In this document: positions 1 to 33,912 of the stretch, piece by piece
Layout of the letters: every line of letters starts with the position of its first letter
Numbering within the stretch: the first letter of the stretch is position 1
Source of the DNA: Escherichia coli
GTDB taxonomy: Bacteria > Pseudomonadota > Gammaproteobacteria > Enterobacterales > Enterobacteriaceae
DNA length: 64,000 bases
Assembly (NCBI RefSeq): GCF_016026235.1
Contig: NZ_CP065613.1
Strand: one strand, 5' to 3'
The notes under the pieces: generated by a model
What the model was told of the DNA's origin: nothing
Databases searched by the model: none
The model's input: the letters and a program-made list of their open reading frames with translations, nothing else
Program-made: the position numbers and the translations under genes

Positions 1-1013
1 ACTTTGTCGTTCTCCATCACTTTCATAGAACGGAACTTCCACACTTTGATCGGCTTGCCATCCATGCCGTAGCGAGTCTGGCGGAAAATAACCGGCCCCG
101 GTGAGCTCAGTTTCACCGCCAGCGCAATGCAGCACAGCACCAGGGAGATCAGCAGCAGGATAAGCGTCGCCAGCACAATGTCTTCTGCACGTTTTATCAG
201 GCGGTTAACCCCGGAAAGCGGCGTGTCATACAGCGGCACCACCGGTACGCCATTCATCTCTTCGAGGCGTGAATGGAGAATGTTGAAGGTAAAGACATCG
301 GGGATCAGCAGCACCGAACAGGTGGTGTCCGCCAGTTGATGGACCAGTTTTTTCACTCGCGCGCCGTCGCACATCTGCATCGCGATATAGACGTTATGAA
401 TCTTGCCCGCTTTCGCATCCTCGACCAGTTGTTGCAGATTGCCCGCCCAGTCGTTAGAAACGCCACCCGGTTTCAGGTCGTGGTAAACGCCCACCACTTC
501 AAACCCTAACCACGGCTGATTACGGAAGCTCTCCATCAGCATTTGTCCGGCGGCTAAATCCCCCGCCACCGCGACCATGCGCTTGTTATAGCCATGATTA
601 CGCAGCCAGCCCGCCCCAATGCGAATACACGAACGGCAAACCACCAGTCCGATGCTGGTCAGCCCATACCACGCCAGCCAGATTTTCAGTTGCGTGTCGA
701 AATCATTGTTGAACGCCGCCAGTCCGGCGCTGAAAATCACGCTTATGGTCCAGTTTTGTAGCAACAGGGCAAATTCTGTCGCTGCCCGAACACCGCGCCA
801 TGAGCGATAAAAGTCGGTGATGCCGCCCAGCATCTGGAACACCACCAGCGTAATCAGCGCCACCAACAGGTGCATGTAGAGGAATGACAGTCCGCTCACT
901 TCGCAAACCAGCCATAGTCCGGCAAACATGATGGTGATATCTGAAAAGCGTTGCACCATAGAGATTAACGATGCATTGGTTTTCGCTCGCTCGCGCTTTT
1001 TTAGATTTGTCAT
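1..1013 (-). CDS. wcaJ: Undecaprenyl-phosphate glucose phosphotransferase WcaJ, N-terminal part (C-terminus lies beyond the window start)
   Basis: Minus-strand ATG at 1011-1013; manual translation gives MTNLKKRERAKTNASLISMVQRF... followed by hydrophobic TM segments. Not in the ORF track because it has no in-window stop. Lies immediately downstream of cpsG, as in the K-12 wca operon. Confidence 0.8.
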   Translation of the reverse strand, partial: MTNLKKRERAKTNASLISMVQRFSDITIMFAGLWLVCEVSGLSFLYMHLLVALITLVVFQMLGGITDFYRSWRGVRAATEFALLLQNWTISVIFSAGLAAFNNDFDTQLKIWLAWYGLTSIGLVVCRSCIRIGAGWLRNHGYNKRMVAVAGDLAAGQMLMESFRNQPWLGFEVVGVYHDLKPGGVSNDWAGNLQQLVEDAKAGKIHNVYIAMQMCDGARVKKLVHQLADTTCSVLLIPDVFTFNILHSRLEEMNGVPVVPLYDTPLSGVNRLIKRAEDIVLATLILLLISLVLCCIALAVKLSSPGPVIFRQTRYGMDGKPIKVWKFRSMKVMENDK

Positions 1014-1067
1014 CGTTGTTCCTGTTTTTAGCCCCTTACCCGCAGTGGGGTAAGGGAAGATCCGACA

Positions 1068-2438
1068 TTACTCGTTCAGCAACGTCAGCAGAGTTCGCGT
1101 TCGCGCTTCCATCAGCGGCACATCACCGCGTGATTCCACATTCAGGCGCACCACCGGTTCGGTGTTGGAGGAGCGCAGATTAAAGCGCCAGTCGGCAAAG
1201 GTCATGCTGATGCCATCGGTACGATCCACCGCCAGCGCCTCGCGGCTAAAGTGCTGTTCCACGCGGTTAATCGCCTCAACGGGTTGTGCCAGTTTGCTGT
1301 TGATCTCACCGCTTGCCGGAAACGCTGACATCCGGTCGCACACCAGTTCGCCCAGCGTTTTTCCTTTCAGGCACACCAGTTCGGCGACCAGCAGCCACGG
1401 GATCATGCCGCTGTCGCAGTAAGCGAAATCACGGAAGTAATGGTGGGCGCTCATTTCGCCACCGTAGATAGCGTCTTCCTTGCGCATACGTTCTTTAATA
1501 AAGGCGTGTCCGGTTTTCGACATTACCGGGGTGCCGCCTGCGGCAGTCACCACATCAACGGTGTTCCAGGAGAGACGTGGATCGTGGATGATCTTCGCGC
1601 CGGGATTTTTTTCGAGGAACGCTTCTGCCAGCAGGCCGACAATGTAGTAGCCCTCAATAAACTGCCCTTTTTCGTCAAACAGGAAACAGCGGTCAAAATC
1701 GCCATCAAAGGCAATGCCCATATCCGCGCCGTGTTTAATGACCGCATTGCGGGTATCGTCGCGACATTCCGGCAGCAACGGGTTAGGAATACCGTTGGGG
1801 AAATTGCCGTCCGGCGTGTTATGCACTTTGATCAATTCCACCGGTGCGCCGAGGGCTTTAAAGCGGGCTTCAATGGCGTCCACCACCGGACCCGCCGCGC
1901 CGTTCCCGGAGTTAATCACCAGCTTGAGCGGCGTGAGGTTTTTGACGTTGATATAACCGAACAGGTGATCAACGTATGCATCACGCAGGTTGATTTGCTG
2001 ATAGCAACCGCGTTTGGTTTCATCGACGGGAGGAAAGTCGTTGGCTTCTGCCAGACGCTGGACGTCGCGCAGTCCGGTATCGCCGCTGATCGGGCGAGCC
2101 CCTTCGCGCACCAGTTTCATGCCGTTGTAATCCATCGGGTTATGGCTGGCGGTAACTTCAATGCCGCCATCCACGCCAAGATGGAACGTGGCGAAATAGA
2201 TTTCTTCGGTGCCGGACATACCAATATCCAGCACGTCGACGCCCGCATCCTGTAAACCTTTTGCCAGCGCCAGTTTTAAGGTTTCGCTGGTGAGGCGGAC
2301 ATCACCGCCTAACACAATGGTTTTCGGTTTGAGAAATTCGCCATAAGCGCGACCAATGCGCCAGGCAATATCTTCATTCAGTTCTTCGCCTAATTTCCCG
2401 CGAATATCATAGGCTTTAAAGCAGGTTAATTTTTTCAT
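1068..2438 (-). CDS. cpsG: Phosphomannomutase
   Basis: ORF track 1068..2486; start trimmed to [14 protein letters not shown]. Active-site motif TASHNP is present. Confidence 0.92.
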
Positions 2439-2527
2439 ATCGTTACCCTTTTTCAGGCAATAGTTGGCCCTGACCGAAGCGGCCAATTTTATTTTTGTCG
2501 TTATTTACACCGCGGTTTCGCATTCAT

Positions 2528-2628
<101 letters not shown>

Positions 2629-2630
2629 GT

Positions 2631-4067
2631 TTACACCCGTCCGTAGCGATCCGCGAAGCGCACCACATCATCCTCTTCGAGATAAGAGCCGGAGCGCACT
2701 TCAATTAAATCGAGCGGAATTTTCCCCGGGTTTTCCAGGCAGTGCGTCGCCCCCAGCGGAATATAAATCGACTCGTTTTCACCAAGCAGTTTGATATCAC
2801 CATCGATAGTGACTTTTGCCGTTCCCGCGACCACCACCCAGTGTTCCGCGCGGTGATGGTGCATCTGTACCGACAAGCCTTCGCCCGGTTTCACGGTGAT
2901 GCGTTTCACCTGGTAGCGGTCGCCCGCGTCGATAGAGTCATATTTGCCCCACGGACGATACACTTCGCGATGCACCCGATGCTCATGGCGACCATCGGCT
3001 TTGATCTGCTCGACCACTTTTTTCACATCCTGCACCGCGTTACGGTCGGCAATCAGCACCGCATCTTTGGTCTGCACTACCACCAAATCTTTCACCCCGA
3101 CGGTGGTGACCAGGCCAGATTCGGCATACACATAGCTGTTTTCGGTTTTGTGATTAATCACATCGCCGTGGCAAACGTTGCCCTCGGCGGTGTGGGCGCT
3201 GATTTCCCATAAAGAGGACCAGGAGCCAACATCGCTCCAGCCCGCATCCATCGGCACCACAACAGCATCTGCCGTACGTTCCATGACCGCGTAATCCACC
3301 GACTCTTCCGGGCAGGCCAGAAACGCTTCTTCATCCACGCGAATAAAATCGAGATCCGGATCGACGGCGCTCATCGCTTGTTCACAGGCGTCGAGAATAT
3401 CCGGGCGATATTTTTTCAGTTCTTCGAGATAGCGTCCGGCGCGGAACAGGAACATGCCGCTGTTCCAGTAATATTCGCCGCTTGCCACATAGGCCTGGGC
3501 GGTTTCCAGATTCGGTTTTTCGACAAACTGCGCCACTTCAAAGGCCACCGTATCCTGCTCACCCGCCGACACTTCACCGCGACGAATATAGCCATATCCG
3601 GTTTCAGGTAGATCCGGCACAATGCCGAAGATCACCAGCTTGCCCGCTTCGGCATACGGCATGGCATTACGCACGGCGGCACGGAACGCGTCTTCATCGG
3701 CAATCACATGATCCGCCGCCAGCACCAGCATTAACGGGTCGCTCTCCGGGCTATGACGTTTTGCCGCCAGCGCCGCCAGTGCAATGGCAGGTGCAGTGTT
3801 ACGCCCTGCCGGTTCGAGAATAATGTTCTCGGTGAGTTTGTTCAGTTGACGCAGCTGTTCCGCGACAATAAAGCGGTGCTGCTCATTGCAAATCACCACT
3901 GGGCTTTCGCACTCCACGCCGTTCAGGCGGCAGATGGTGGTTTGCAGCATGGTGAGATCGCCTTTCAGGCATAAAAACTGCTTGGGGTAAAGTACGCGGG
4001 AAAGCGGCCATAAGCGGCTACCGGAGCCACCTGCCATCACAACTGGATAGAGTTTCGACTGCGCCAT
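2631..4067 (-). CDS. cpsB: Mannose-1-phosphate guanylyltransferase
   Basis: 478 aa; N-terminal nucleotidyltransferase motif [16 protein letters not shown] and C-terminal cupin-like region. Confidence 0.92.
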
Positions 4068-4069
4068 AA

Positions 4070-5293
4070 TTATCCCCGAATATCATTTATAAATTGACGT
4101 AACACGTTCTCTTTATCGAGTGTGCGTTCGGCATATTCACGTGCCACCGTGTTGTGTTTGGGCAGCAGGAGCGCCTGACGGATCCCCGCCACCAGCGCCT
4201 CGACCGATTCCGGTTCTACGCAAACCGCAATGCCCGGAAAGGTTTCGCAAAGCTGCCCCAGTTCTGTGTGGGCCTCTGCGGTAATCACCGCGTTACCGCC
4301 TACCGCCAGAATATTGGTCAGTTTCGACGGCAATACGGCATCTGCCGCACCGCGTTTTTGCACCACCAGATGGCAATCGCCCATCTTCAGCAGTGCGGGT
4401 AAAGCGTCATACGATTGCAGCGGGAAAAATTGCATGTTGCGCAGTCCACGCTGCTGCGCCATTTTTTCCAGCCGCGCTTTGCCGCCGCCCTGCCCGACAA
4501 TGGCAAAAATCAGCGGTTCATCGCGCAGACGATCGGCAGCTTCAATAACGTTTTCCAGCCCCTGCTTTTCACCAATATTGCCGGAGTAAAGAATGATTTT
4601 TTTGTTATCCGGCAGGTCAAGCTGGTTACGAAGGGCGTCAACATCGGCATCTGCAACATGCTGAAAACGGGCAATTTCCGACCAGTTGGGGAAGAAGATG
4701 ACGTTTTCCGCCGCCACGCCTTTTTCGATGGCTTTATTCATCATCGAACGCGAAATCGTGGAGACGTTATCGACGTTATGCAGTCCGCTACGTTCGAACG
4801 CCGTTGCCAGCTGTGCCACTTTGCCGCCTTTGCCTTTTCCGGCAAGGCCCAGCCCCAGCATGGCGTCCACTTCGTAATCCTGAATATGCAGCACGGTACG
4901 CGCACCAGAGAGCTTCGCCAGCAGGCGCATTCCCGGCGTGCAAAACAGCGTTGGCACTACGCCGATAATGCGATCCGGCTTCCAGCGACGTTGCGCCATC
5001 AGTGGAAAGAAACTGCTGACGGCAAAACTGCCGAGATGCAACAAGCGTTTCAGGGTGCTCGGCTGTTTTGGCACGTACAGCGGGCAGCGCCACACCGTGG
5101 CGGCCCCCTCTTCTCGTTTGTAGCGCCAGGCGGAATAGTTCTCACCCACCTGCCATTGCGGGTAGTAAGGCGGTGCGGTAATGACCCGCACCTCATGACC
5201 TTGTGCCGCCAGCCATTCCACCATCTCGCCGGTGTATTTGCCGATGCCGGTTAACTCCGGCGAGTAGTTAATGCCGTAGACCAGTATTTTCAT
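4070..5293 (-). CDS. wcaI: Colanic acid glycosyltransferase (GT1/GT4 type)
   Basis: 407 aa; glycosyltransferase-like; 4-nt overlap with gmm; position in wca operon. Confidence 0.85.
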
Positions 5294-5772
5294 AATCCGG
5301 GTACTCCGGCACGCTTCTCAGCGAGAAAATAGGCGCGGCTGTTAGCGTGAACATCGTTACTGGCGAGCAGCGCGTCCGGCGTCAGCCAGCGGTAATCGTC
5401 ATGCTGCTCATCCGGCAGTAACAGCTCTTCTTCCGCTACTCTGAAGCGAAAACCGAGCACCACATAGTGAGTGGTGAAATCCGTGCCGGAGAAGTTATCG
5501 TCATAAAAGTGCTGCCAGACACCGTAAAACTGGCCTGCTGTTATCGGCAGACGCAGCCCCAGTTCCGCCATCGTCAGCCGCTCAAATGCGGCTTCCAGCG
5601 TTTCGTCTTTCTGCACGCGCCCTCCCGGCACAAACCAGTAACCCTGCGCCGGGCGGTTGGTTCTTTTGCCAAGCAGAAACTCGCCGCGACTGTTCTCGAC
5701 AATAAAGTCGAGAGAGACAAGCGGTGTGGAGCGCACTACCGTGGCAAAGTCTTCCTGACGTAAAAACATCAT
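5290..5772 (-). CDS. gmm: GDP-mannose mannosyl hydrolase (Nudix)
   Basis: 160 aa; Nudix-like box [23 protein letters not shown]. Confidence 0.88.
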
Positions 5773-6737
5773 TACCCCCGAAAGCGGTCTTGATTCTCAA
5801 GGAACCACTGGTAAGTGCTGGCAAGCCCCGCTTCCAGTGAGATTTCGTGATACCAGCCAAGCTGATGCAGCCGCGTCACATCCAGCAGTTTGCGCGGCGT
5901 GCCATCCGGTTTGCTGGCATCAAAAACTACCCGACCTTTGTAACCCACCACTTTGGCGATGGTTTGCGCCAGCTCACGGATAGTGCAGTCAACGCCCGTG
6001 CCGACGTTAATGTGCGACAGCATCGGCTGGGTGTTCTCCTGCCAGACTTCGTGCGCCAGCTCCATCACATGAATGCTCGCCGCTGCCATATCATCAACGT
6101 GTAGAAATTCGCGCATCGGCGTACCGCTGCCCCACACCACCACGTCCGGCGCATTCTGTGCCGTCGCCTCATGGAAGCGACGCAGCAATGCTGGGATCAC
6201 ATGCGAATTACTCGGGTGGAAGTTGTCGTGTGGCCCGTACAGGTTGGTTGGCATGACTGAGCGGTAATCCCGTCCGTACTGGCGGTTGTATGATTCACAC
6301 AGTTTGATCCCGGCGATTTTGGCAATGGCATAAGGCTCGTTGGTCGGCTCCAGCGTGCCCTGCAACAACTCGCTTTCTGCCATCGGCTGTTTTGCCAGTT
6401 TCGGGTAGATGCAGGACGATCCGAGAAACAGCAGTTTGTTCACGTCGTTCTGATGCGCGGCGTGAATGATGTTGCTCTCAATCATCATGTTCTGGTAGAT
6501 GAAATCTGCCGGATACGTGTTGTTGGCAACAATGCCGCCCACTTTCGCCGCCGCCAGATAGACCTGGTCAATACGTTCGCTGGCAAAGAAATCATGCACC
6601 GCGCGGCTGTCCAGCAGGCTCAGCTCGTCGCGGGTGCGTAATACCAGTTCCACATCACCGCGCTGTTCGAGCTGTCGCCTGATGGCGGAACCGACCATCC
6701 CGCGATGGCCAGCGATAAAAATGCGTTGTTTACTCAT
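5772..6737 (-). CDS. fcl: GDP-L-fucose synthase
   Basis: 321 aa; N-terminal Rossmann motif [13 protein letters not shown] (SDR/epimerase fold). Confidence 0.92.
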
Positions 6738-6739
6738 GC

Positions 6740-7861
6740 TTATGACTCCAGCGCGATCGCCACGTCGTAGCCGTGAGATTTCAGCAGAGAGTGTTTTTTC
6801 GCCGCTTCGAGGTCATTAGCCACCATTTCAGACACCATCTCTCTGAGGGTGATTTCCGGTTTCCAGCCCAGTTTTTCGTGCGCTTTGGTCGGGTCACCGA
6901 GCAGCGTTTCAACTTCAGCCGGACGGAAGTAGCGCGGGTCAACGGCGATAATCACATCACCCGGTTTAACGCCCGGCGCGTCATGCCCGGTGACGGAAAC
7001 CACAATGCCCTTCTCTTCAACACCCGTGCCTTCAAAGCGCAGTTTGATACTCAGCTGTGCCGCCGCCATTTCCACGAACTGACGCACGGAGTACTGAACG
7101 CCGGTAGCAATAACGAAATCTTCCGGTTGTTCCTGTTGCAGCATCATCCACTGCATTTTTACGTAGTCTTTGGCGTGGCCCCAGTCACGCAGGGAATCCA
7201 TATTGCCGAGATACAGGCACGACTCCAGCCCCTGGGCGATGTTGGCGATTGCGCGGGTGATTTTGCGGGTAACGAAAGTCTCGCCACGGCGCGGGGATTC
7301 ATGGTTGAAGAGAATACCGTTACAGGCGTACATGTCGTAGGATTCGCGGTAGTTAACGGTGATCCAGTAGGCGTACAGTTTGGCGACCGCATACGGAGAG
7401 CGTGGGTAGAACGGCGTGGTCTCTTTCTGCGGAATTTCCTGCACCAGACCGTACAGTTCAGAAGTAGAAGCCTGATAGAAACGGGTTTTCTTTTCCAGAC
7501 CGAGGAAGCGGATCGCCTCGAGCAGGCGCAGCGTACCCATCGCATCGACGTCTGCGGTATATTCCGGTGACTCAAAAGAAACCGCAACGTGGCTCATTGC
7601 GCCCAGGTTGTACACTTCATCCGGCTGCACTTCACGCAAAATGCGCGTCAGGTTGGAGGTATCACTCAGGTCGCCATAATGCAGATGGAATTTCTGGTTG
7701 CAGGTGTGCGGATCCTGATAAATGTGATCCACGCGCTCGGTGTTGAATGACGATGCACGACGCTTAATACCATGCACTTCGTAACCTTTTTCCAGCAGAA
7801 ACTCTGCCAGGTAAGAACCGTCTTGTCCGGTTACACCGGTGATGAGAGCGACTTTTGACAT
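6740..7861 (-). CDS. gmd: GDP-mannose 4,6-dehydratase
   Basis: 373 aa; N-terminal [22 protein letters not shown](P)-binding motif. Confidence 0.93.
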
Positions 7862-7887
7862 GTCTTATTCCTCTGTATTTTTTGAAT

Positions 7888-8436
7888 TTATTCAGTTTCA
7901 ACGCGTTTGCGTATCACCACTGCGGGGTTCCCCCGACAAACCACATTTGCCGGAAGCGATTTAAAAACACTGCTTCGCGCACCCACGACGGTGCCGTCGC
8001 CGATCGTGACGCCAGGGGCAACAAAGACATCGGTTGCCAGCCAGCATTTCTCGCCAATCACAATAGGCGTGGCGTTAATGGTGAAATGTTGACTTGCATG
8101 GTCGTGGCTACCGGTGCATAAATAACTTTTTTGCGATATCACCGAATGTGCGCCAATGGTTATTTCACCGAGGGTATATAAATTGACCTCATCGCCGACC
8201 CACGCGTAATCACCTAAGGTTAATTTCCACGGATAGGTAATTTTTACTGACGGACGAATAACTACGTTTTTACCTATTTTTGCCCCGAATAAACGTAATA
8301 AAAATGCCCGCCAGCGATACAATACTTGTGGCGACCAGGCAAATATTGTTGCCTGTACTGCCCACCACAATTGCACTTTAATAGCGTTGCCACCCCGGAA
8401 CCCTTTCGGCACCGAGAAACCACTTAAATCCTGCAT
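7888..8436 (-). CDS. wcaF: Colanic acid acetyltransferase (hexapeptide-repeat family)
   Basis: 182 aa; left-handed beta-helix hexapeptide repeats (IGDGTVVGARSSV...). Confidence 0.85.
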   Translation of the reverse strand: MQDLSGFSVPKGFRGGNAIKVQLWWAVQATIFAWSPQVLYRWRAFLLRLFGAKIGKNVVIRPSVKITYPWKLTLGDYAWVGDEVNLYTLGEITIGAHSVISQKSYLCTGSHDHASQHFTINATPIVIGEKCWLATDVFVAPGVTIGDGTVVGARSSVFKSLPANVVCRGNPAVVIRKRVETE

Positions 8437-8451
8437 CGTTTTCCCTTATAT

Positions 8452-9198
8452 TCAGATTTTGTTATATAAGGCTTTCGTCTTTGAGGTAGTACGTTGGCGT
8501 AAATGCCAGGATAATTCTGCCCAGAAACCAGGCACATGTAATATCTGCCGTTGGACTTTTTTGGCGTCAGCACATAATTCCATATTATTGGTGGTAGATA
8601 CTCCACCCATAGAAAATTCAGACACCAGGCCATTGAGTTTTCTAAATGCATAACCGGCTTTATACATTTTGGCTGCCAGCGCGTAATCGGAAGAAACTTT
8701 ATATTCCAGGTCATAACGCCATTTTTTCAAGCCGGATACCGGAAAAAATATCGCCTGATGACTGGCGGGCAGGCTGTGATAAATATACCAGCCCGGTTTG
8801 GCGCTACGTTTAATTTTATGCCCGTCGCCAAAATCCAGCAGCGCATCGCCAGTGATCATCACGTTATCTTTTTGTACTTTTAACTTACGGACAAAATTTG
8901 CGGCATCCTGATGAAAAATATCACCTGAGTTGAGAAACAACGCGAACTTGCCTTGTGCCATCGCAATGCCTTTGTTCATGGCGTCGTAGATACCGTTATC
9001 TGGCTCGCTGACAAAACGTAGGTTATAGATACCCTTGAGATTTTCCAGGTACTCACGGGTGCCGTCATTGGAACCGCCATCGACAACAATCCATTCGAAG
9101 CTGATATCGTCCGCCTGCGCCAGATGCGCCAGCGAGGCGTGTGTTTTGACTATCCCTGCGAGGTTACGAAACGCGACAGTGATTATGCTAAGCAACAT
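8452..9198 (-). CDS. wcaE: Colanic acid glycosyltransferase (GT2)
   Basis: 248 aa; GT2-type N-terminus (ITVAFRN...[12 protein letters not shown]). Confidence 0.85.
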
Positions 9199-9208
9199 GT
9201 TCTTATTC

Positions 9209-10426
9209 TTACCTCGTAATATTTAACGCTTTTCGCAAAATAAACGGACAGACGATTAAAAATGCATATTCCGGGCTAAATATCGAACCGGTAAAAAACA
9301 GCGATACCGGAGTAAAAAGATATAATTGCACGCGAAAATTGCGGTTATCACCAAAAGCGTTGATCATCATTTTTATCACTTTCCCCATGTACCACAGCGA
9401 TAAAAACACTGCGAACCAGGAAAAATAAATAATCAGCAGATACAAACCATTGTCTATGGTTTTTCCGACATCCGCACCGTTAAATATTCCGAATGATGCG
9501 ACGTATTCATAAAGTGAGCCAAATCTGACTACACCGTCAATATGGGTCAAAGAATAACCGACCATCACCAGCGGACCGACAATACGATAATACGATGACG
9601 ATCCTTCCGTACCTAAATCGCCCAGACGGGTGGAAATATAAGGAAACGCGATTACCACACCAACCAGGAATACAGCCAGAGAAATCAATGCCAACGGTAA
9701 CTTTTTCTTAATCGCCTCTTTATTCAGATATTGAAATGCCCACTCCAGCAAATAAAACAGGATAAAGGTCATAACCCCTGAAAACGATCCGGATAATATT
9801 ATCCCTGCGAGAATCATAGCATCGGTTTTAGGCGTTTTGATACCAAACTGTTTGATGCTGAGCCAAATTGAGATTAATGCCAGAGCGAAAAATGCCGGTT
9901 CGAAATAAAGTGCTGTCGTGCGCTTGCCGCCGAATTTAATGAAATTCAGTACATAGCTGTTGCTGTAAATCAGATATTTCGAAATCGACTCCATAATACT
10001 GCTGCCACCGGTGAGGATAATTTGCGCCATCTCCACCGCCGCCAGCGCCACCACCAGCCCGACCACCAGATAAAAGAAACGTAATATCTTGCGATGGTTG
10101 TGTGGCGAAATCGTTTTAAAGCGAATACTCCACACCATGCCAATAATGATCACAATATAGACAAACAGCATGGTTGAAGTGACGTATTTACTGGCATCCA
10201 GCGACTGACCAAACAGATAGTTAAACGCCGTGAGTCCCGCACCAATCCCTAAGGCAATCATCAATTTTTTAACGCTGATGCGTTCTAAAAACAGCAGTAA
10301 CAAGACAGGTAAAAAAGTGACGATGGTGATGGGGAAACTTTCGCCAAGCTGGGCGATTTTGACGTTAACCAGCAGGTAGATCAGCGGCAGCAGCAGGTAG
10401 CTACAGATTCTGATAGAAGTTGACAT
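9209..10426 (-). CDS. wcaD: Colanic acid polymerase (Wzy-like multi-pass membrane protein)
   Basis: ORF track 9209..10498; start trimmed to [19 protein letters not shown]. Many TM helices. Overlaps the wcaC 3' end. Confidence 0.8.
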
Positions 10427-11618
10427 ACTCCTCCAGCATCTGTTGTCCACTGTAGGCCGCGCGGCTGCGTTGGCTGAACTCAGCCAGCGTGGTACCAAAT
10501 ATCGCCTGCGCGATTTCCGGTTTGCTTAACTGCACCAGTTGCAGCACGTCTTCTTCGCTGACGGTTTTACCGCCGGATTTTTGCAGCACTTCCCGCGCCG
10601 CGTCGCTATGGGTGGCAATCACCGGCACGCCAATCGATAGCGCCTCACACAAAATCAGCGGGTAGTTATCGACGCGAGAACTGAACACCAGCGCATCCAT
10701 CTGATTGAGCGCGCTCATCAACTTGCGCTTGTCAGTTTCAAAGCAGTGATTAACCACGTTGCCAGCGGTGAACGGCGAGAACTTACCAAAGGTATGCAGT
10801 TCGATTTTGTCGCCCAGCGCCATCATCTCACGCACCAGTTGCTGGTTAGTTTTGCCGTCGTAACGCAGGTCATGCGCCACCACCGCGATTTTCGGCTTAC
10901 CCTGGGTTTCGCGCACCGGGGGCAGATCCGCCAGAATCGCTTCGGTTGCCATATCAATACCATTATTGATAATCCGGCAACGCCCTGGCCCGTACAGACT
11001 ATTGAAAGCGTCAGCCACATGCTGGCTGGGGGAAATAAACTGACAGCCCAGCGCCAGCATCTCGCGGAATAACTGGCGTTTGCCCGCCACCAGCTGGTGC
11101 GCGCGATCAATCTTCACCGGCGGATAGTTATTTAAGGTCGGGCATTTCTGGCAGCCCGTTTTCCAGCCTTCGCAACCGTCGGTAAAGGCGCAGCGTCCGG
11201 TAACGCTCCAGTGGTCGTGTAACGTCCAGACCAGAGTGACGTCCGGTTTATGGTTTTTCACCTTCTCGCAAAAGCGCACCACGCTCTTAAGATTCAACCA
11301 GTAGCTGTGCAGCACATGCAAATGCAGGACCACCGGGCCCGGTGTGCGAGTAATGGTGCGATATAACTCATTGAAATTGCCAAACAGATCGTGATTAAAC
11401 AGACGAAACAGGGCAATATTCGCCATCGCGGTCATCCGCGGCGTATGTTTGATGACCTGCGGATAGTTCTGATGGCTGACGCTCTCTTTGCCGCCTTTGC
11501 CGTAGCCATAGACAAAATGTGACGCCAGCCCCTGTTGCAGCGCACGCTGGTGGAGATCTAACGCCACACCTGCTGCCCCGCCTTCCGCCAGTCGCACATT
11601 AAATTGCAAAATATTCAT
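10401..11618 (-). CDS. wcaC: Colanic acid glycosyltransferase (GT1)
   Basis: 405 aa; GT1-like; position in wca operon. Confidence 0.85.
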   Translation of the reverse strand: MNILQFNVRLAEGGAAGVALDLHQRALQQGLASHFVYGYGKGGKESVSHQNYPQVIKHTPRMTAMANIALFRLFNHDLFGNFNELYRTITRTPGPVVLHLHVLHSYWLNLKSVVRFCEKVKNHKPDVTLVWTLHDHWSVTGRCAFTDGCEGWKTGCQKCPTLNNYPPVKIDRAHQLVAGKRQLFREMLALGCQFISPSQHVADAFNSLYGPGRCRIINNGIDMATEAILADLPPVRETQGKPKIAVVAHDLRYDGKTNQQLVREMMALGDKIELHTFGKFSPFTAGNVVNHCFETDKRKLMSALNQMDALVFSSRVDNYPLILCEALSIGVPVIATHSDAAREVLQKSGGKTVSEEDVLQLVQLSKPEIAQAIFGTTLAEFSQRSRAAYSGQQMLEEYVNFYQNL

Positions 11619-12103
11619 TTAATTACCTTCACTCGCGCTTTTTCTCCCACCACCAGCGCGTTGTCCGAGACAGAGTCGAGCACCACGCTGCCCGCGCCCA
11701 CGGTGACGTTGTTACCAAGCGTGATATCACCAAGAATAATGACGTTGGCACCGAGTTCGACGCCGTTGCCAATGTGTGGACATGCCATGTTATCGGCACC
11801 ACGATTGCCGATAGTGACGCCGTGGCGAATGGTGAAATCATCCCCCGCTACCACGTTTTTATTGATCACTACGGCGTAACCGTGATGGATAGTAAAGCGG
11901 CGGCCAATGGTCGCGGCTGCCTGGATTTCATAACCGAAAAAGCATTCGGTGATAATGCGATACAGCACCAGCAGCGGGGCCGCCCACAGATTGTTGAGGA
12001 CGTTCTTTTTGCGCCACACCGAACAAAAATGAGCGACGCGATAGGCAAGAACCATGCAGCACGGGCGTAAACTCCAGCTGTTGGCGCGTAGATCTTCCAG
12101 CAT
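11615..12103 (-). CDS. wcaB: Colanic acid acetyltransferase (hexapeptide-repeat family)
   Basis: 162 aa; hexapeptide repeats (IGNGVELGANVIILGDITLGNNVTVGAGSVV). Confidence 0.85.
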   Translation of the reverse strand: MLEDLRANSWSLRPCCMVLAYRVAHFCSVWRKKNVLNNLWAAPLLVLYRIITECFFGYEIQAAATIGRRFTIHHGYAVVINKNVVAGDDFTIRHGVTIGNRGADNMACPHIGNGVELGANVIILGDITLGNNVTVGAGSVVLDSVSDNALVVGEKARVKVIK

Positions 12104-12105
12104 CT

Positions 12106-12945
12106 TTAGCGCCCCCGAATACCATCAGCCAGACGTTTGCCGTTACGCACCGACAGCAGCGTCAGCAAAGTGCGCCAGGTCATACGTTTATTGCGGATCT
12201 GGTAGAGGGTAAACAGCTGATATTTTTTACTGGCACGGTCGAATTTGTCTTTGTGCTTGCGGTAAAAGTGGAAGTATCCGGAGAATTTTTTCGGTGACGA
12301 GGTGATCTGCATTTCACCGTGATTGATATGCAGGATCTGCGTCGCCTCTTCCACTTTCCACGGTTCGCCATACTCCACCACCATCCGCAGGAAGATGTCG
12401 TAATCCTGTGCCGCTTTCAGTTCGGTATCGAACAAACACTCTTTGAAACGCCATGCCCAGGTAAAGACCTGATTGCCAATGATATTGCGTTTATAGAACA
12501 GGCGGCGTGAATACGGCGATTTGGGATACAGCGGCAAGCTTGCCGGTTGGGAATAGACTTCGCCCTGGCAAACGTAGTCGTTAGCGTACAAAAAGGCGTG
12601 AGTGACCAGTTGCTGTTTATGGGCGAGGAAGACGCTCAGACGGTTGGGTGTCCATTCATCATCATCATCGATCCCGGTGATGTATTCCCCTTGCGCCAGC
12701 ATAATCGCCTGGTTACGTACCGCGCACGCCCCGCTGTTAATGTCGTTGTGAATGTAAGTGATACGCGGATCGTTGAGGGCGGTGACGTACTGTTGCAGTT
12801 GTTCCCAGGAGGTGGAGCAATCATCCACGATGATCATCTCCCAGTTGCTGTAGTCCTGGCGCAGGACCGATTTTATCGCCCGAATCGCCAGTTGTTGGCG
12901 GTTCCAGGTCGGCATATAGATTGAAATCAGCGGATTGTCTTTCAT
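12106..12945 (-). CDS. wcaA: Colanic acid glycosyltransferase (GT2)
   Basis: 279 aa; GT2 motifs (ISIYMPTWNRQ...IIVDDCS). Confidence 0.85.
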   Translation of the reverse strand: MKDNPLISIYMPTWNRQQLAIRAIKSVLRQDYSNWEMIIVDDCSTSWEQLQQYVTALNDPRITYIHNDINSGACAVRNQAIMLAQGEYITGIDDDDEWTPNRLSVFLAHKQQLVTHAFLYANDYVCQGEVYSQPASLPLYPKSPYSRRLFYKRNIIGNQVFTWAWRFKECLFDTELKAAQDYDIFLRMVVEYGEPWKVEEATQILHINHGEMQITSSPKKFSGYFHFYRKHKDKFDRASKKYQLFTLYQIRNKRMTWRTLLTLLSVRNGKRLADGIRGR

Positions 12946-13007
12946 TGGTTGTTCTCCCGGAGTGTCGAGATGTTCTGCCGGTTTATAAGCTTGTTTACGG
13001 GTTCTGT

Positions 13008-13120
13008 TGCCGGATGCGGCGTGAGCGCCTTATCCGGCCTACGGAGCTGGTTTGCTTGCCGGATGCGGCGTGAAGGTAGGTCGGATAAGATGCGTCAGCA
13101 TCGCATCCGACAGCGGATGT
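13008..13120. repeat. REP/BIME cluster between wcaA and wzc
   Basis: Repeated GCCGGATGCGGCGTGA...CCTTATCCGGCCTAC type units. Confidence 0.8.
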
Positions 13121-13122
13121 CG

Positions 13123-15285
13123 TTATTTCGCATCCGACTTATATTCGTATTCGTAATAGCCATAATCCTGATACGCGCTGGCGCGGCGGAAGATGGAGTT
13201 CAGAATCACCCCTTTCACCGGAATACCGTTTTGCTCAAAGCGGCTCAGACTGGTTTCCACTTCTTTCAAGGTGTTGACCGCATAACGCGCCACCATTAAC
13301 GTGGTTCCGACATGACGACCAACAATTGCGGCATCGGTCACTGCCAGAATCGGCGGCGTATCAATCAACACCAGGTCGTAGTTTTTACTCGCCCAGTTCA
13401 CCAGTTCGGCAAAGCGTTCGCTCATCAACAGTTCAGAAGGATTTGGCGGCACCTGACCGCGCGGGATCAGGTCAAATTTGGCAATAGAGGTCGGTTTAGC
13501 TGCGGTAGTAATATCGCCCTGACCAATCAGAATTTCCGACAGGCCATTGACGTTATTGGTACCCAACAGCTCGTGGGTGTAGCCTTTGCGCATATCGCAG
13601 TCGATCAACAACACCCGTTTATTGGTCTGACTGATCACCGCCGCCAGGTTGGCGCAGACAAAGGTTTTACCAATTGACGGGCTAACCCCGGTCATCATCA
13701 ACACATTGTTCTGCGCCTGCATCATCGCGAAGTGCAGACTGGTACGCAGACTGCGGATGGCTTCAATCGCCAGATCGGTTGGATTCCCCACCGCCAGTAG
13801 CTGGCTCTGTTTATAGCGTTTAATCCCTTTGATGGTTTTGACGCTATCGCGCGCTTTCTGCCATTCCGACAGCGGGATGCTGGCATAGACGCTGATACCA
13901 TGTTCTTCCAGCACCTGCGGGCTTTCGATGCCGCGATTAAACAACGAGCGCAGCAGCACACCCACGATAGAGAGCATCAGGCCAAGGATAATCGCGCCGA
14001 GGATAATCAGTCCTTTCTTCGGTTTCAGCACGCCAGGCTGGGTGATTGCCGGGTCAACAATGCGCACATCGCCGACGGTGCTGGCTTCGGTGATTTTCAG
14101 CTCCTGCTCTTTATTCAGCAGTTGCATATAGACCTGCTGACCAGACTCGACATCGCGGGTCAGGCGCACAATCTCCTGCTGGGTTTTCGGCATCGCCGTT
14201 ACGCGACCGTTAAGTTTGGCTTTCTCTTCTTCCAGCGCCTGACGTTTCTCCAGCAGCGTGCGGTACGCCGGGTGAACTTTGGTGTACAGCTTGGAGATTT
14301 CCGCCTCTTTAAAGGTCAGTTCGTTCAACTGCGCGTCGATGTTCACCATCGAATCGAGCACCGCTTTCGCTTCAAGCGGCAGATCAACAGAATCTTTATC
14401 CTGACGGAAGGCATTCAGTTTGTTTTCGGCAACATCGAGGCGGCTACGTACTTCCGGTAACTGTTGCGCGAGGAAAGCGAGGCTTTTCGACGCTTCCGCC
14501 GATTTGCGCTCAATATTTTGTTCCTGATAGTTACGGGCGATGCTGTTAAGAATGTCGCGGATCTGTTCGCGATCTTCACCGGTATAAGTCAGGCTCAGTA
14601 CGCCTGCGTCTTTGCCGTTCTCCGTTACCGTCAGGCTGTTTTGCAGTTGGTTGATCATCCCCAACGTGGAGTATTTGGTGACGGTAAACTCACTGCCCGG
14701 GCGGGCGTGAATGGCTTCAACCATCAGCGTGACGCCTTCTTTTTTCAGCATCTGGCCCGCTTGCCCACGGGCGCTAAAGCCGCCATCACTGCTCAGGGTG
14801 TAGTTTTTATTGTCCAGCACATTAAGCGTAAACACCTGGTCCGCCATCTCTTTCGGGCGGTTAAAGGTAGTCACTTTCACCGTCTCGTTCTGGCGTCCCA
14901 TCAGTCGATCCCAGCCCGCCCCGAAAATCGGGAACGTGTTTTTGCTCACTGCAATATCGAGGTCGAGATCGTCCACCGTTTTACCAAGCACCAGACGCGA
15001 ACGAATCAACTGGATCTCGGCGTCCGATGCAGGCGGTTTGTTGGCTAATGCCGAACCAATGTCCTGCACTAACGAATTGCCGATGTTTTGCTCGATTTGT
15101 ACCAGTGCGTCGGCACTATAAATCGGCGTGGCGAAGAAGGTGTAAACCACGGCACAGAGGGCAAATACAGCGGTGATGCCAATCACCCACCAGCGCGCTT
15201 CAATGACGGTGCCGACCAGGCGACCAATATCGATTTCATCACTGCCCGTTACCGGAGCGGCATGTTGTTTTACTTTTTCTGTCAT
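13123..15285 (-). CDS. wzc: Tyrosine autokinase / polysaccharide co-polymerase
   Basis: ORF track 13123..15321; start trimmed to MTEKVKQHAAPVTG. Walker A GVSPSIGKT and C-terminal Tyr cluster YQDYGYYEYEYKSD. Confidence 0.93.
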   Translation of the reverse strand: MTEKVKQHAAPVTGSDEIDIGRLVGTVIEARWWVIGITAVFALCAVVYTFFATPIYSADALVQIEQNIGNSLVQDIGSALANKPPASDAEIQLIRSRLVLGKTVDDLDLDIAVSKNTFPIFGAGWDRLMGRQNETVKVTTFNRPKEMADQVFTLNVLDNKNYTLSSDGGFSARGQAGQMLKKEGVTLMVEAIHARPGSEFTVTKYSTLGMINQLQNSLTVTENGKDAGVLSLTYTGEDREQIRDILNSIARNYQEQNIERKSAEASKSLAFLAQQLPEVRSRLDVAENKLNAFRQDKDSVDLPLEAKAVLDSMVNIDAQLNELTFKEAEISKLYTKVHPAYRTLLEKRQALEEEKAKLNGRVTAMPKTQQEIVRLTRDVESGQQVYMQLLNKEQELKITEASTVGDVRIVDPAITQPGVLKPKKGLIILGAIILGLMLSIVGVLLRSLFNRGIESPQVLEEHGISVYASIPLSEWQKARDSVKTIKGIKRYKQSQLLAVGNPTDLAIEAIRSLRTSLHFAMMQAQNNVLMMTGVSPSIGKTFVCANLAAVISQTNKRVLLIDCDMRKGYTHELLGTNNVNGLSEILIGQGDITTAAKPTSIAKFDLIPRGQVPPNPSELLMSERFAELVNWASKNYDLVLIDTPPILAVTDAAIVGRHVGTTLMVARYAVNTLKEVETSLSRFEQNGIPVKGVILNSIFRRASAYQDYGYYEYEYKSDAK

Positions 15286-15287
15286 TC

Positions 15288-15731
15288 TTATACCTGCTCT
15301 GCGTTCAATGCCTGCGCCCACTGGCGGGCAGACCGTTCAAGTAATGTGTACACCGCTGCAAACGTTTCCCGGCTTTTGCGATACGGATCGGGGATTTCAC
15401 ATTCGTTATCCCAGTGACCAAACAGCATCACTTTGCCGCGCATCTCAGGTGCCATCTCGCATAAGCGTTCGATATGGCGCTTTTCCATGGTCAAAATCAG
15501 GTCATAGTTGCGACACAGGCGGCGGCTGATTTGTCGTGCACAGTGGCCTTCCAGAGACAGTTGATGTTCTGCGGCGACGCTGATAGCGGTAGGATCAGCG
15601 CCCTTACCGACCAGCGCGCCGAGTCCAGCGGACTCCACTTTCAGTTCCGGGTGATAACGTTGCAGTAAGCGTTCCGCCGTCGGGGAACGGCAAATATTGC
15701 CGACACAGACAACTAATATGTTGTTAAACAT
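15288..15731 (-). CDS. wzb: Low-molecular-weight protein-tyrosine phosphatase
   Basis: 147 aa; CX5R P-loop motif VCVGNICRSP. Confidence 0.93.
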   Translation of the reverse strand: MFNNILVVCVGNICRSPTAERLLQRYHPELKVESAGLGALVGKGADPTAISVAAEHQLSLEGHCARQISRRLCRNYDLILTMEKRHIERLCEMAPEMRGKVMLFGHWDNECEIPDPYRKSRETFAAVYTLLERSARQWAQALNAEQV

Positions 15732-15736
15732 GACGA

Positions 15737-16876
15737 TTACCAGTTATGAATGTCGCTGGCTGTATCCGTCATGTAACGGACACCGCTAATAGTTGGCAGC
15801 AACTGATTGATCAGACGGTTCCAGCGGGAAACCGGGGCGGTGGTGACATACACCACGTCATAAGGTTGCAGGCGGAATTCTGTCGCCATCACCAGCGACG
15901 TGGCATCGGACATATCCAGCTGGTAGATATTGGCAATCTTGCCATTACGCCCGCCCTCGCCTTTCAGCGGACGAATGACAAAGATGCCGCTGGCGTTGGA
16001 GGTGGTCATGTCGATACCTTCAGCATTGCCCAGAGCTTCAGTCAGGGTCATGCCGCTAAAGTCCATTTTCAGGGTGCTCTGTTTCTTCACTTCACCCATC
16101 ACAAATACTTTCAGATCATCATTACGGGGCACGTAGAGAATATCGCCGGGATAAAGCAGTCGGTTCTGATTGAGGTCGCCGTTTTGCATCAGCGCCTGTA
16201 AAGAAATGCGTTCTTCACGACCATTGTGTGTTAGCACTACGTTGCGCCAGTCAGCGGTGTCGGTCAGGCCACCTGCGGCGTTGATGGCGTCGAGAATAGT
16301 CAGTGGCACGTTGGTGATCGCCTGTTGACCGGATTTATTCACCTGACCGGAGATATAGGCCTTTTGTGAGCGGAAGGCGGCGATATTAACGTCCACCTGC
16401 GGGTCAGCGATGTACGTCGCTAAGCGCCCGGTAATATCACTGCGGATTTCAGCGAGCGTTTTCCCGACTACGTGAACCTTGCCGATATACGGGTAAAACA
16501 TAGTGCCGTCAGGCTGTACCCAGTTGCCGGTGTCGCTGGAGCTGCGGTACTGACCGGCTGGCGTGGTGAGTTCCGGGTGATCCCAGACGGTGACATTAAG
16601 AACGTCCCCCGGCCCGACGCGATACTGGTAATTCGCGATCTCGCTTTCCAGCGTCATATTGGGGCGCGCTACATTCGGGCGTGGGCGTAATTGGTCAATC
16701 AGGCGCGGGGTCAGCGGATAAACATTCACCATTTTGTCGAGATCGAAATCAGCGTCCTGCTGTTTGATGACGTCTTTGCCCATCGTCGACATATTGCTGC
16801 CCGGAAGTACTGTGCAACCGCTTATCAAGGTTACTGACACCAATAATGGCATCAATTTCATTTTGGATTTCATCAT
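15737..16876 (-). CDS. wza: Outer-membrane polysaccharide export lipoprotein
   Basis: 379 aa; lipoprotein signal peptide ...LISGC; first gene of the capsule operon. Confidence 0.93.
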
Positions 16877-17054
16877 TGTTTATTTATCACTTTGGCAGAG
16901 TAATTATCCTGTGCACTATTAATAGCAATGTCGCCATGCACATTTACCTTGCAGTTAATTGAATAAAAATTTAACTGGCATCAGTCCTAAAAAAATTGAT
17001 TTCATCCGCAGGCTATTGACAGAATAATTCAGACTGGTCTTTCAGGCATCCAGA

Positions 17055-17066
17055 CACGCTACCGCC
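17055..17066 (-). promoter_or_regulatory. ops element (RfaH recruitment site) within a JUMPStart-type leader upstream of wza
   Basis: Plus strand reads CACGCTACCGCC, so the minus-strand transcript carries GGCGGTAGCGTG, the ops consensus, about 180 nt upstream of the wza start codon. Confidence 0.7.
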
Positions 17067-17534
17067 CCTGGCTTTTTAGCTACCAATACACTGATTTAGA
17101 TTAATTTTTCAAACCCTCTCTGCATACAATCGTTGATGAGAAAGGGTTATTGCGGAAATTAACTTCCGAATATAAGGTGACATTATGGTAATTGAATATT
17201 GGCTCTCCAATAATGCAGGAGGAAGTGTTACAGCTAACGGAATAGCAGGCAAGGTAACAATTCGGCAATTGGCTATTTTTAAGAATTATATTAAGTGTCA
17301 TTCAATATGGTTTTTAGGAGTTTCTTTAGGTTGACAATATTTAATATTGCGCCTCCACATGCGATATTTCTTAAATAATGTTTTATTATTACCACTTTTA
17401 ATTCAGGGATAATGTGAGGTTATTACCCTCAAATAATATGAGATAAATAGTGCTGCAACATTGCATTTTTTCCCCGATTTATCCATGATCGAATTGTGAC
17501 ATTTGTCATACAACGAATAGGTTTTGTACTTACT

Positions 17535-31953: not shown

Positions 31954-32134
31954 AAGAAATCCTTTCTTAGAGAATTATTGAGGTCCGGTATCATACCGAC
32001 TGCAATAATGAAATAAGAGCAAACGAAGAAACTTTCAGAATTAGTCCCGGCGGCGCAGAAAATTTTGCTATTCGCCTCGCAAGAACGGAGAGCCGTCGAT
32101 TGACACTAAGGGCGGAGTGACATAATTTCAGGAG

Positions 32135-32278
32135 TGAGGGTTAGGGAGAGGTTTCCCCCTCCCCCTGGTGTTCTTAGTAAGCCTGGAAGCTAATCACTAA
32201 GAGTATCACCAGTATGATGACGTGCTTCATCATAACCCTTTCCTTATTAAAAGCCCTCTTCTCCGGGAGAGGCTTTCC
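32135..32278 (+). ncRNA. sibA: SibA antisense sRNA (type I antitoxin); coordinates approximate
   Basis: Sigma70-like promoter TTGACA(32100-32105)-17-TAATTT(32123-32128); transcript region fully antisense to the ibsA ORF; imperfect hairpin plus T-rich tail near 32251-32278. Confidence 0.6.
32174..32233 (-). CDS. ibsA: Ibs-family type I toxin peptide (19 aa)
   Basis: Minus-strand ORF ATGATGAAGCACGTC... translates to MMKHVIILVILLVISFQAY; too short for the ORF track. Confidence 0.65.
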   Translation of the reverse strand: MMKHVIILVILLVISFQAY

Positions 32279-32492: not shown

Positions 32493-33786
32493 CTGAGGAA
32501 TCCCCAGAAAACAAGACAGGCATAGTGAGATGTGATCTAATTGATTGTGCTAACAATTTCAAGGAGATCACCACTATGCCTGCACGTTCATTATGCCAAA
32601 ATTTCCTTAACAACATACTGGCCCCTTTGCATCTTTACCGTCAAAAATCACTGATTGACGCAACTAATGCTGTAATAAATGGCGCTTCCCTCACACTTAC
32701 CAGTATCGGGCGTCATTTAACCGGTACGGCATCAGTTAAAAACAAAATAAAGCGGGTGGATCGACTGTTGGGGAATCGACATTTGCAAAATGAGGTTTCC
32801 ACCATTTTTCAGCGAATTACCCAAAAGATTACGCGGGGAATGTCTCGTGTTGTGATACTCATTGACTGGAGTGCTTATCATGCCTCTCGTTTTCAGCTTT
32901 TGCGGGCAAGCCTGGCATGTGACGGGCGTTCTTTACCGTTGATGAGTTGTGTCGTTCCATCATCACAGACAGCGAATGCAGATGTACATGAGCGTTTTCT
33001 GGAATCGCTTGCTGAGTGCTTTTCCCCCGGGACTGATGTCATTGTTATTACAGATGCCGGTTTTCAGGGGCGATGGTTCCAACAGCTCCGCTCCCGTGGC
33101 TGGACCTATATTTGCCGGGTACTGGGCAATCATTATTACAATGTTGGTAATGGCTGGGAAAAGGTGTCGGACTCAGGCACAAAAGCATCAACGACAGCAA
33201 TTTATTTAGGTGAAGGCCTGCTGGGTCGAGATAAAAATGCACAACATGAAGGGCATTTTTATCTTTATAAAAGTAAGCCTAAAGGTCGTAGATTTAAACG
33301 CTCGAAGGAAAGAGCAACCAGACCATCGGTGACGGCTAAAGCTCGTACTGCCGGGAAATCACCATGGTTTATTTTCACAAACAGTACTGAGTTCTCGCCA
33401 AAACAGGTAATGAAATTATACAGCCGTAGAATGCAAATTGAGCAAAATTTCAGGGATGAAAAAAATCCTCGCTGGGGATTTGGACTACGGTTTGGTGCCA
33501 GTCATTCATCCGGGCGGGTCACGGTATTGAGTCTGATCGCAACATTAGCCAGTATCATTATGTGGTTAAGCGGTTTCAGTCTGGAAAACAAAGGGATACA
33601 TCATAAATATCAGGCAAATACAGTGAAGCACAGGCGAGTCATCTCGTTATTAAAACTGGCGGAGAATGTGATTCGACATTCTCCACTCATACTAAACACA
33701 CTGTCACTTGACGCAGGGCTGAAAGTTCTACAGCAACGGTATACCAATATGATAATGGTTTACTAAATTTTCTGGGGATCCCTCAG
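32493..33786 (+). mobile_element. IS10-like insertion sequence (IS4 family), copy 1, 1294 bp
   Basis: Imperfect terminal inverted repeats CTGAGGAATCCCCAGAAAAC / CTGAGGGATCCCCAGAAAAT; flanking direct repeat GGGTTTCCCC (32483-32492 and 33787-33796; 10-12 bp depending on end assignment); encodes an IS10-like DDE transposase. Confidence 0.9.
32525..33766 (+). CDS. IS4-family (IS10-like) DDE transposase
   Basis: 413 aa; recognisable similarity to the IS10 transposase (KRVDRLLGNRHL, YSRRMQIEQNFRDEKN, HKYQANTVKHR); alternative start at MPARSL (32576). Confidence 0.9.
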   Translation: MRCDLIDCANNFKEITTMPARSLCQNFLNNILAPLHLYRQKSLIDATNAVINGASLTLTSIGRHLTGTASVKNKIKRVDRLLGNRHLQNEVSTIFQRITQKITRGMSRVVILIDWSAYHASRFQLLRASLACDGRSLPLMSCVVPSSQTANADVHERFLESLAECFSPGTDVIVITDAGFQGRWFQQLRSRGWTYICRVLGNHYYNVGNGWEKVSDSGTKASTTAIYLGEGLLGRDKNAQHEGHFYLYKSKPKGRRFKRSKERATRPSVTAKARTAGKSPWFIFTNSTEFSPKQVMKLYSRRMQIEQNFRDEKNPRWGFGLRFGASHSSGRVTVLSLIATLASIIMWLSGFSLENKGIHHKYQANTVKHRRVISLLKLAENVIRHSPLILNTLSLDAGLKVLQQRYTNMIMVY

Positions 33787-33912
33787 GGGTTTCCCCCGCC
33801 CTGGTAGCCTTAGTAAGCTGGCCAGCTAATGACTAAGAGCACCACGATGATGAGTAGCTTCATCATGACCCTTTCCTTATTTATGGCCCCTTCCTCGGGA
33901 GGGGCTTTCCCG
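33787..33912 (+). ncRNA. sibB: SibB antisense sRNA, 3' portion; promoter and first ~25 nt are separated by the IS (5' fragment about 32465-32492)
   Basis: Second copy of the Sib repeat unit: promoter TTGACA(32435-32440)-17-TACTTT(32458-32463), then the IS, then the remainder antisense to ibsB, ending in a hairpin plus T tail near 33885-33912. Confidence 0.55.
33810..33866 (-). CDS. ibsB: Ibs-family type I toxin peptide (18 aa)
   Basis: Minus-strand ORF translates to MMKLLIIVVLLVISWPAY. Confidence 0.65.
   Translation of the reverse strand: MMKLLIIVVLLVISWPAY

Follow-up and report, generated by a model that had tools for sequence, protein, structure and literature searches.

A JUMPStart/ops element in the wza leader as the probable RfaH loading site of the Escherichia coli colanic acid operon

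The leader of wza in the colanic acid (cps/wca) operon of Escherichia coli carries an exact ops sequence at the 3' end of a complete JUMPStart, and this JUMPStart/ops element is very probably the site at which RfaH, a paralogue of NusG, is loaded onto RNA polymerase. The element in the wza leader is already known, having been published as a textbook site of RfaH anti-termination, and the value of a genome scan lies here in the correct annotation of a known regulatory element and not in a discovery. All coordinates given below without another source refer to the window, i.e., the whole stretch of 64,000 nucleotides of E. coli DNA that was analyzed, with (+) and (-) denoting its strands.

Genomic context of the wza leader

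The annotated gene order of this region runs from mdtABC … asmA and yegH to the divergent wza-wzb-wzc-wcaA-…-wcaJ-wzxC-wcaK, and the window, which begins inside wcaJ, is collinear with the annotated strain VL40 at 97-99.8% identity (100% over the 1-kb stretch around ops). The first gene of the operon, wza (15737..16876 (-)), encodes an outer membrane polysaccharide export protein and was identified by a match to NCBIfam PRK15078 (729 bits) and by its RefSeq annotation as wza. It is followed by an open reading frame at 15288..15731 (-) that lies between wza and wzc in the order wza-wzb-wzc (NCBIfam equivalog NF007520, 329 bits) and then by wzc itself, the gene of a tyrosine autokinase, at 13123..15285 (-) (NCBIfam equivalog NF008568, 1516 bits, with the match beginning at residue 13 of the open reading frame). 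Based on the collinearity with VL40, the distal colanic acid genes from wcaA to part of wcaJ occupy positions 1..12945 (-), and the operon extends past the start of the window. The genes from wcaA to wcaJ are those expected to depend most on RfaH. In K92, RfaH is said to promote cps expression, a result attributed to Navasa in 2014.

Several RNA motifs were matched by Rfam models elsewhere in the window. The algC RNA motif (RF02929, 76.6 bits) is found at 2443..2492 (-) inside the colanic acid operon, in the gap upstream of the phosphomannomutase gene cpsG, while two Sib antitoxin RNAs (RF00113) at 32100..32248 and 33749..33881 (both (+), with 149.5 and 72.3 bits, respectively) lie opposite ibs type I toxin genes and the small RNA CyaR (RF00112, 100.7 bits) is found at 49438..49523 (+).

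An exact ops sequence at the end of a full JUMPStart

The 12-mer GGCGGTAGCGTG is present at 17055..17066 (-) as the sole exact copy in the 64 kb when both strands are searched. Its letters are those of the ops motif of Hustmyer et al. 2022 (PMC9765446), and it matches the 12-nt ops consensus GGCGGTAGnnTG with its T11-G12 pause dinucleotide (the minus-strand sequence around it reads …CAGTGTATTGGTAGCTAAAAAGCCAGGGGCGGTAGCGTGTCTGG…). The element acts as non-template-strand DNA, and the strand on which it is found is indeed the coding (non-template) strand of wza, wzb, and wzc. The 3' G of ops lies 179 nt 5' of the wza ATG at 16876, with 178 bases in between, so that both the location of ops on the wza-coding strand and its distance of about 180 nt to the start of wza, as given in the initial annotation, were borne out.

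This ops sequence forms the 3' end of a full 39-nt JUMPStart, CAGTGTATTGGTAGCTAAAAAGCCAGGGGCGGTAGCGTG (17093..17055 (-)), which joins an upstream hairpin half to ops. Alignment to the JUMPStart consensus, the check that had been suggested for the initial annotation, gave a match to Rfam model RF01707 (JUMPstart) at 17055..17093 (-) that covers model positions 1-38 of 38 and scores 57.3 bits compared to a gathering score of 35 (E = 1.6e-10 window-wide in a whole-window Rfam scan).

Previous work on strain CFT073 described its wza ops as GGCGGTAGCGTG at 2424955-2424966 (-), located in the UTR on the non-template strand and upstream of wza by 190 nt (5' end) and 179 nt (3' end) (Hustmyer et al. 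2022, PMC9765446), and this geometry is that of the window. The wza ops of CFT073 belongs to a set of only eight leader-region ops sites at which RfaH gave a ChIP signal, and this signal is absent in a ΔrfaH mutant (PMC9765446). Both this RfaH signal and an upstream sigma-70 peak are seen only in Δhns ΔstpA because H-NS silences initiation in rich medium, and wild-type CFT073 in rich medium shows neither RNA polymerase nor RfaH at wza, making the site "cryptic" under standard conditions (PMC9765446). JUMPStart-RfaH antitermination for wca/cps is stated in other papers that cite Stout 1996 and Hobbs & Reeves 1994, and the genes downstream of wzc are stated in published papers to need RfaH. The initial annotation had read the element as evidence for RfaH-dependent antitermination of the capsule operon, and this reading is supported by the Rfam match, the strand, the published CFT073 ChIP, and the JUMPStart-RfaH statements, with the dependence of distal genes being drawn from the literature.

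Short strings resembling ops are not rare in this DNA. Nine copies of the 8-nt ops core GGCGGTAG are present in the window (at 4300, 17059, 17646, 28452, 36819, 37329, 42629, 49118, and 52567) compared to 1.46 copies expected from dinucleotide shuffles, and the core ranks only 760th among the 8-mers of the window. The eight cores other than the one at wza all lack T11-G12 as well as the hairpin and, where they could be placed, lie inside genes; we rejected them as ops sites, and the excess of the core most likely reflects codon usage (GGC-GGT, ACC-GCC).

Given that codon usage can generate such mostly intragenic strings, the match in the wza leader might itself be a chance or vestigial 12-mer without function, a reading to which we assign next to no probability. 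The exact 12-mer appeared in none of 100 dinucleotide-preserving shuffles of the window (the chance expectation is 0.46 when one mismatch is allowed, but the wza-leader match is exact), and it is embedded in a full JUMPStart with the T11-G12 dinucleotide and the hairpin that set it apart from the other eight cores.

Conservation across genera

The conservation of the locus also speaks against a chance match. Of 5426 complete E. coli genomes, about 4830 have the wza-yegH intergenic region at an identity of at least 95%. JUMPStart-like places number 2 (median) and at most 5 per E. coli genome. Because an identity of at least 95% almost everywhere makes conservation within E. coli uninformative as a footprint, we compared the element across genera by scanning representative genomes for CCANGGGCGGTAGCGTG, which gave at least 120 loci. 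A Wza homologue is encoded downstream on the ops strand in at least 28 of the at least 120 listed loci, and in 15 Enterobacteriaceae genera among the matches listed (Wza at least 85% identical), the last base of ops is separated from the wza ATG by 176-187 nt. The genera in this comparison include Citrobacter, Enterobacter, Lelliottia, Kluyvera, Siccibacter, Superficieibacter, Pseudocitrobacter, and Mangrovibacter. While the presence of ops in the compared loci follows from the search pattern, neither the fixed spacing nor the conservation of the upstream half of the JUMPStart (22 nt) does, and this half is conserved in the 15 genera. Together with the published ChIP data, the conservation of the element at a fixed distance from wza refutes a chance origin for practical purposes.

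Other arrangements were observed in more distant relatives. In six loci of Serratia, Brenneria, Erwinia, Pantoea, and Tatumella, the JUMPStart lies 1.3-3.8 kb 5' of wza, so that the first gene after ops is one other than wza (amsG/wceG-type arrangement), and in Aliidiomarina and Idiomarina, with a Wza that is only about 47-54% identical, ops is found ~95-520 nt upstream of wza.

Outside the taxa listed by Rfam for the JUMPStart, we observed the exact ops 12-mer after CCA[AC]G and a lineage-specific hairpin in the leaders of polysaccharide genes of Akkermansiaceae (L004 at 724..735 (+), L083, L095, and L061), of Burkholderiales and relatives (L062/L063, L109, and L103), and of Legionella (L018 and L106), as well as in L043. 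In three of the Akkermansiaceae, the gene that follows ops at a distance of ~28 nt encodes a UDP-galactopyranose mutase (Pfam GLF, 6e-66), and ops of the beta-proteobacterial and Legionella loci lies 5' of genes for nucleotide-sugar enzymes, among them UDP-sugar dehydrogenases (confirmed by Pfam for L103). The Rfam JUMPStart model scored below threshold on these Akkermansiaceae, Burkholderiales, and Legionella loci, and no link of RfaH, ops, and Verrucomicrobia was found in the literature searched. Chance alone would account for single ops hits in unrelated phyla, with ~140 chance matches expected database-wide for a 16-base pattern.

The JUMPStart hairpin

The upstream half of the wza JUMPStart contains a hairpin at 17068..17086 (-) that follows the Rfam consensus structure, with a 5' arm UUGGU (17086..17082), a 9-nt loop, and a 3' arm GCCAG (17072..17068). 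Across 93 distinct gamma-proteobacterial JUMPStarts, which were picked by taxonomy and not by structure, 82.8% of the cells of the 5-bp stem are paired, and the innermost pair is UG in 43 elements, AU in 19, GC in 10, CG in 5, and GU in 2. The covariation score of the stem is 0.246 compared to 0.106 in shuffles (0 of 500 reach 0.246) and no more than 0.114 for slid partners, with only two stem pairs being informative because the search pattern fixed three of the five 3' positions. The hairpin ends, with its 3' base at 17068, 12 nt before the predicted U11 pause position (17056). The his pause hairpin has the same 12-nt spacing to its pause, a resemblance that we regard as a lead and not as a result.

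Covariation of this kind might suggest that the element acts mainly as an RNA motif, i.e., that the nascent hairpin serves RNA stability, RNA processing, or the binding of another factor independently of RfaH. The pair seen most often at the innermost position, a G-U wobble, is specific to one strand and RNA-like, and Rfam files the JUMPStart as an RNA motif whose stem-loop conservation had already been reported by Weinberg et al. 2010. We nevertheless consider such a role highly improbable, given that the invariant part of the element is the ops 12-mer, that its recognition by RfaH as non-template DNA is established structurally and genetically, and that RfaH occupies the wza ops site of CFT073 (Hustmyer et al. 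2022, PMC9765446). The hairpin possibly complements ops and does not compete with it as an explanation: with this mode of ops recognition, an RNA-only role is not needed, and the hairpin may simply assist an element that is read by RfaH as DNA.

Location of the candidate promoter relative to ops

At 34.7% GC compared to 51.8% for the window, the composition of the wza-yegH intergenic region fits the reported binding of H-NS. The alignment of orthologous leaders, read from 5' to 3', shows a conserved stretch at 17337..17312, an RcsAB-box-like stretch at 17296..17278, a block at 17254..17222, an unalignable part (~17210-17100), the JUMPStart, and finally several conserved blocks down to the start of wza. 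We scored sigma-70-like sites in each orthologous leader and required them to fall into the same alignment column. The only promoter-like site that is conserved by column, TTGCCT-17-TGnAACA(A/C)T, is present in 14 of 14 genera having the region and lies ~150 nt 5' of ops. In the window, it corresponds to a candidate Rcs-activated sigma-70 promoter at 17224..17252 (-) composed of a -35 element TTGCCT (17252..17247), a 17-nt spacer, and an extended -10 element TGtAACACT (17232..17224). As judged from the sequence, transcription from this promoter would start at about 17217 and thereby place ops at about +152 within a 5' UTR of about 341 nt.

Transcripts that start 3' of ops, either from a sigma-E promoter or from another site in the leader, would bypass ops and RfaH and maybe serve only wza-wzb-wzc. 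Such a bypass is very unlikely to account for the relevant transcripts, even though there are observations that it would accommodate. Two promoters have been reported for the operon, since RegulonDB is reported to list a second, sigma-E (RpoE)-dependent promoter besides the RpoD-dependent one, which may lie on either side of ops. In addition, the leader contains strongly conserved and unexplained blocks downstream of ops, and weak promoter-like hits 3' of ops are found in 4-5 of the 15 genera. However, none of the promoter-like sites downstream of ops in the orthologous leaders shows a cross-genus conservation comparable to that of the upstream site, and the conserved spacing between ops and wza argues for the use of ops. 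A downstream promoter would furthermore add to the ops-containing transcript and not replace it. The initial annotation had named a transcription start downstream of 17055 as the observation that would exclude ops from the transcript; instead, the conserved promoter-like site lies upstream, and recruitment of RfaH to ops in vivo, as seen by ChIP, requires transcription through ops. We thus retain the reading that ops is probably part of the transcript.

A generic promoter scan had returned TGGAGA-16-CATAAT at 17209..17182, which we rejected as the main promoter because the stretch of ~17210..17100 is unalignable between genera. This site is also located upstream of ops and leaves the conclusion on ops unchanged.

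Upstream of the candidate promoter, the RcsAB-box-like 14-mer TAAGAATTATATTA (as read on the + strand) at 17280..17293 belongs to a block shared by all genera, with its center at about -70 from the inferred start. It agrees with the RcsAB consensus TAAGAATATTCCTA at 10 of 14 positions in the window and at 11 of 14 in most other genera. When up to 3 mismatches were allowed, the RcsAB box (TaAGaatatTCctA) had no match in the leader, and we assign TAAGAATTATATTA as an RcsAB box only tentatively. The conserved upstream block TTGTCAAcCTAAAGAAAcTCCTAAAA of the cross-genus alignment (17312..17337 (-)) may be a site for an activator or a silencer. This strongly conserved block, which reads TTGTCAAyMTAAAGAAAmTCCTAAAA and lies 5' of the RcsAB-like box, resembles CTGTCAATAG found 3' of ops at ~17023..17014.

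RefSeq/PGAP annotates a 49-aa "hypothetical protein" (WP_162829205.1) at 17185..17334 (+), antisense to the wza promoter region, and does so in many E. coli genomes. As a gene it is probably spurious, since it overlaps the promoter region and spans sequence that contains indels and differs from genus to genus.

The leader downstream of ops

The 178 nt of leader between ops and wza (16877..17054 (-)) comprise several strongly conserved blocks and end in a start region without a Shine-Dalgarno (SD) sequence. In the 22 nt before the wza ATG, the best anti-SD duplex has only -1.6 kcal/mol compared to a random median of -2.5, unlike those of wzc (-6.4 kcal/mol) and wcaA (-7.4 kcal/mol), which both have a Shine-Dalgarno sequence. 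The SD-less start of wza matches what is typical of RfaH targets, i.e., first genes without a ribosome-binding site.

We also observed a mini-ORF of eight codons, ATG CCA GTT AAA TTT TTA TTC AAT TAA (MPVKFLFN*), at 16955..16981 (-), which begins 74 nt downstream of ops and is preceded by a conserved TTTTTTAGGACTG, and an SD-like AGGA is found at 16988..16985. Frame, length, and stop of this mini-ORF are retained in 11 of 15 enterobacterial genera; its middle codons vary freely, and in its first four codons conservation extends to the third positions. It could function as a translated uORF, or its sequence might just be a nucleic acid binding site. Two further conserved sequences of the leader, GAUUAUUCUG (~17021..17030) and CAGGAUAAUU (~16902..16911), both (-), might pair in a 10-bp long-range helix or constitute a DNA inverted repeat that brackets most of the leader. 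The 10-bp helix between ops and wza proposed by RNAalifold was not accepted, as it shows no compensatory changes and the single-sequence fold does not exceed shuffles in stability (z = -0.19). In addition, the leader has three conserved GGA motifs that recall CsrA sites.

It is conceivable, though we hold it to be rather doubtful, that the wza leader is more than a promoter followed by ops and forms a pause-hairpin and/or ribosome-acquisition module. The covarying hairpin with its 5 bp, 9-nt loop, and his-type exit-channel geometry could lengthen or register the pause at ops for the loading of RfaH. The post-ops module, consisting of the SD-like AGGA, the mini-ORF (16981..16955), and a 45-nt invariant block that abuts the SD-less wza start, could be the site where the RfaH-bound polymerase first gains a ribosome and thus shields the 178-nt leader from Rho.

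Proposed mechanism and related systems

In the mechanism that we propose for the JUMPStart/ops element as RfaH loading site, transcription would start near 17217 at an Rcs-activated, H-NS-silenced promoter located ~150 nt 5' of ops. RNA polymerase would then pause at U11 of ops (17056), where the bases, as we read them, agree with the consensus for pausing (G-10, Y-1, G+1). Within the transcription bubble, the exposed non-template GGCGGTAGCGTG would form a small hairpin via C3:G8 and offer G5 and T6 to RfaH. Based on the work of Zuber et al. 2018, the ops bases that matter are the C3:G8 pair of the non-template hairpin, the G4-A7 loop with T6 being captured by RfaH, and T11-G12, and every base found to be important in that study is present in the wza ops. 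Bound to the polymerase clamp, RfaH would shut out NusG together with NusG-assisted Rho termination and suppress pausing, while its refolded C-terminal domain would bring a ribosome via S10 to the SD-less wza. The modified complex would be able to read the ~20-kb operon through the REP-rich gap between wzc and wcaA and through H-NS-coated DNA, resulting in expression of the distal wca genes. Within this scheme, we infer where exactly transcription starts, that the polymerase pauses, and how strongly RfaH affects the distal genes, and we take RfaH occupancy of the site from published work.

The JUMPStart/ops elements of the E. coli O-antigen (rfb/wzx) and LPS-core (waaQ/rfaQ) operons have the same 12-mer GGCGGTAGCGTG on the non-template strand of the leader, belong with that of wza to the same 39-nt JUMPStart family, recruit RfaH, and likewise precede a first gene with a poor ribosome-binding site or none. 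They differ in that ops of wza lies 179-190 nt from the first gene compared to 61-71 nt for rfaQ and wzx in CFT073. Unlike in the rfb and waaQ systems, activity of the wza promoter requires induction of Rcs or removal of H-NS, and the wza leader has extra conserved blocks past ops.

Group 1 capsule loci such as E. coli K30 and Klebsiella cps resemble the colanic acid locus in having a JUMPStart leader in front of a wza-wzb-wzc-type operon. An RcsAB box lies upstream in group 1 loci, to which the tentative box of the colanic acid locus would correspond. Unlike the colanic acid locus, they begin with wzi, adjoin galF, and are reported to be constitutive. Group 1 loci also carry a hairpin or attenuator after wzc that is overcome with RfaH, whereas the post-wzc gap of the colanic acid operon has REP-type palindromes and not a single annotated attenuator. 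This 177-nt gap (12946..13122 (-)) contains REP/BIME-like sequences, seen as repeated palindromes of the GCCGCATCCGGCA / GCCGGATAAGGCG type and as hairpin hits. By analogy with the post-wzc attenuator of group 1 capsule loci, the gap is likely an internal point of polarity or termination that RfaH-modified polymerase would have to pass. The REP/BIME sequences could also be seen as a possible internal attenuator or mRNA-stabilizing element.

Other bacteria have systems of a comparable kind. Like ops, the EAR/epsC RNA of Bacillales and the NusG paralogues UpxY and LoaP couple a cis element in the leader to a termination-resistant polymerase on a long exopolysaccharide operon. The EAR, a large and structured RNA, has a direct action on the elongation complex, whereas ops is single-stranded non-template DNA that is read by a NusG paralogue, and the two have no sequence relationship.

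For colanic acid overproduction, the presence of the element is a design constraint, i.e., the JUMPStart should be kept when promoters are swapped. For the biology of E. coli, RfaH acting at this ops site would explain how a 20-kb, H-NS-coated, and horizontally acquired-looking polysaccharide operon can be transcribed in full once Rcs fires.
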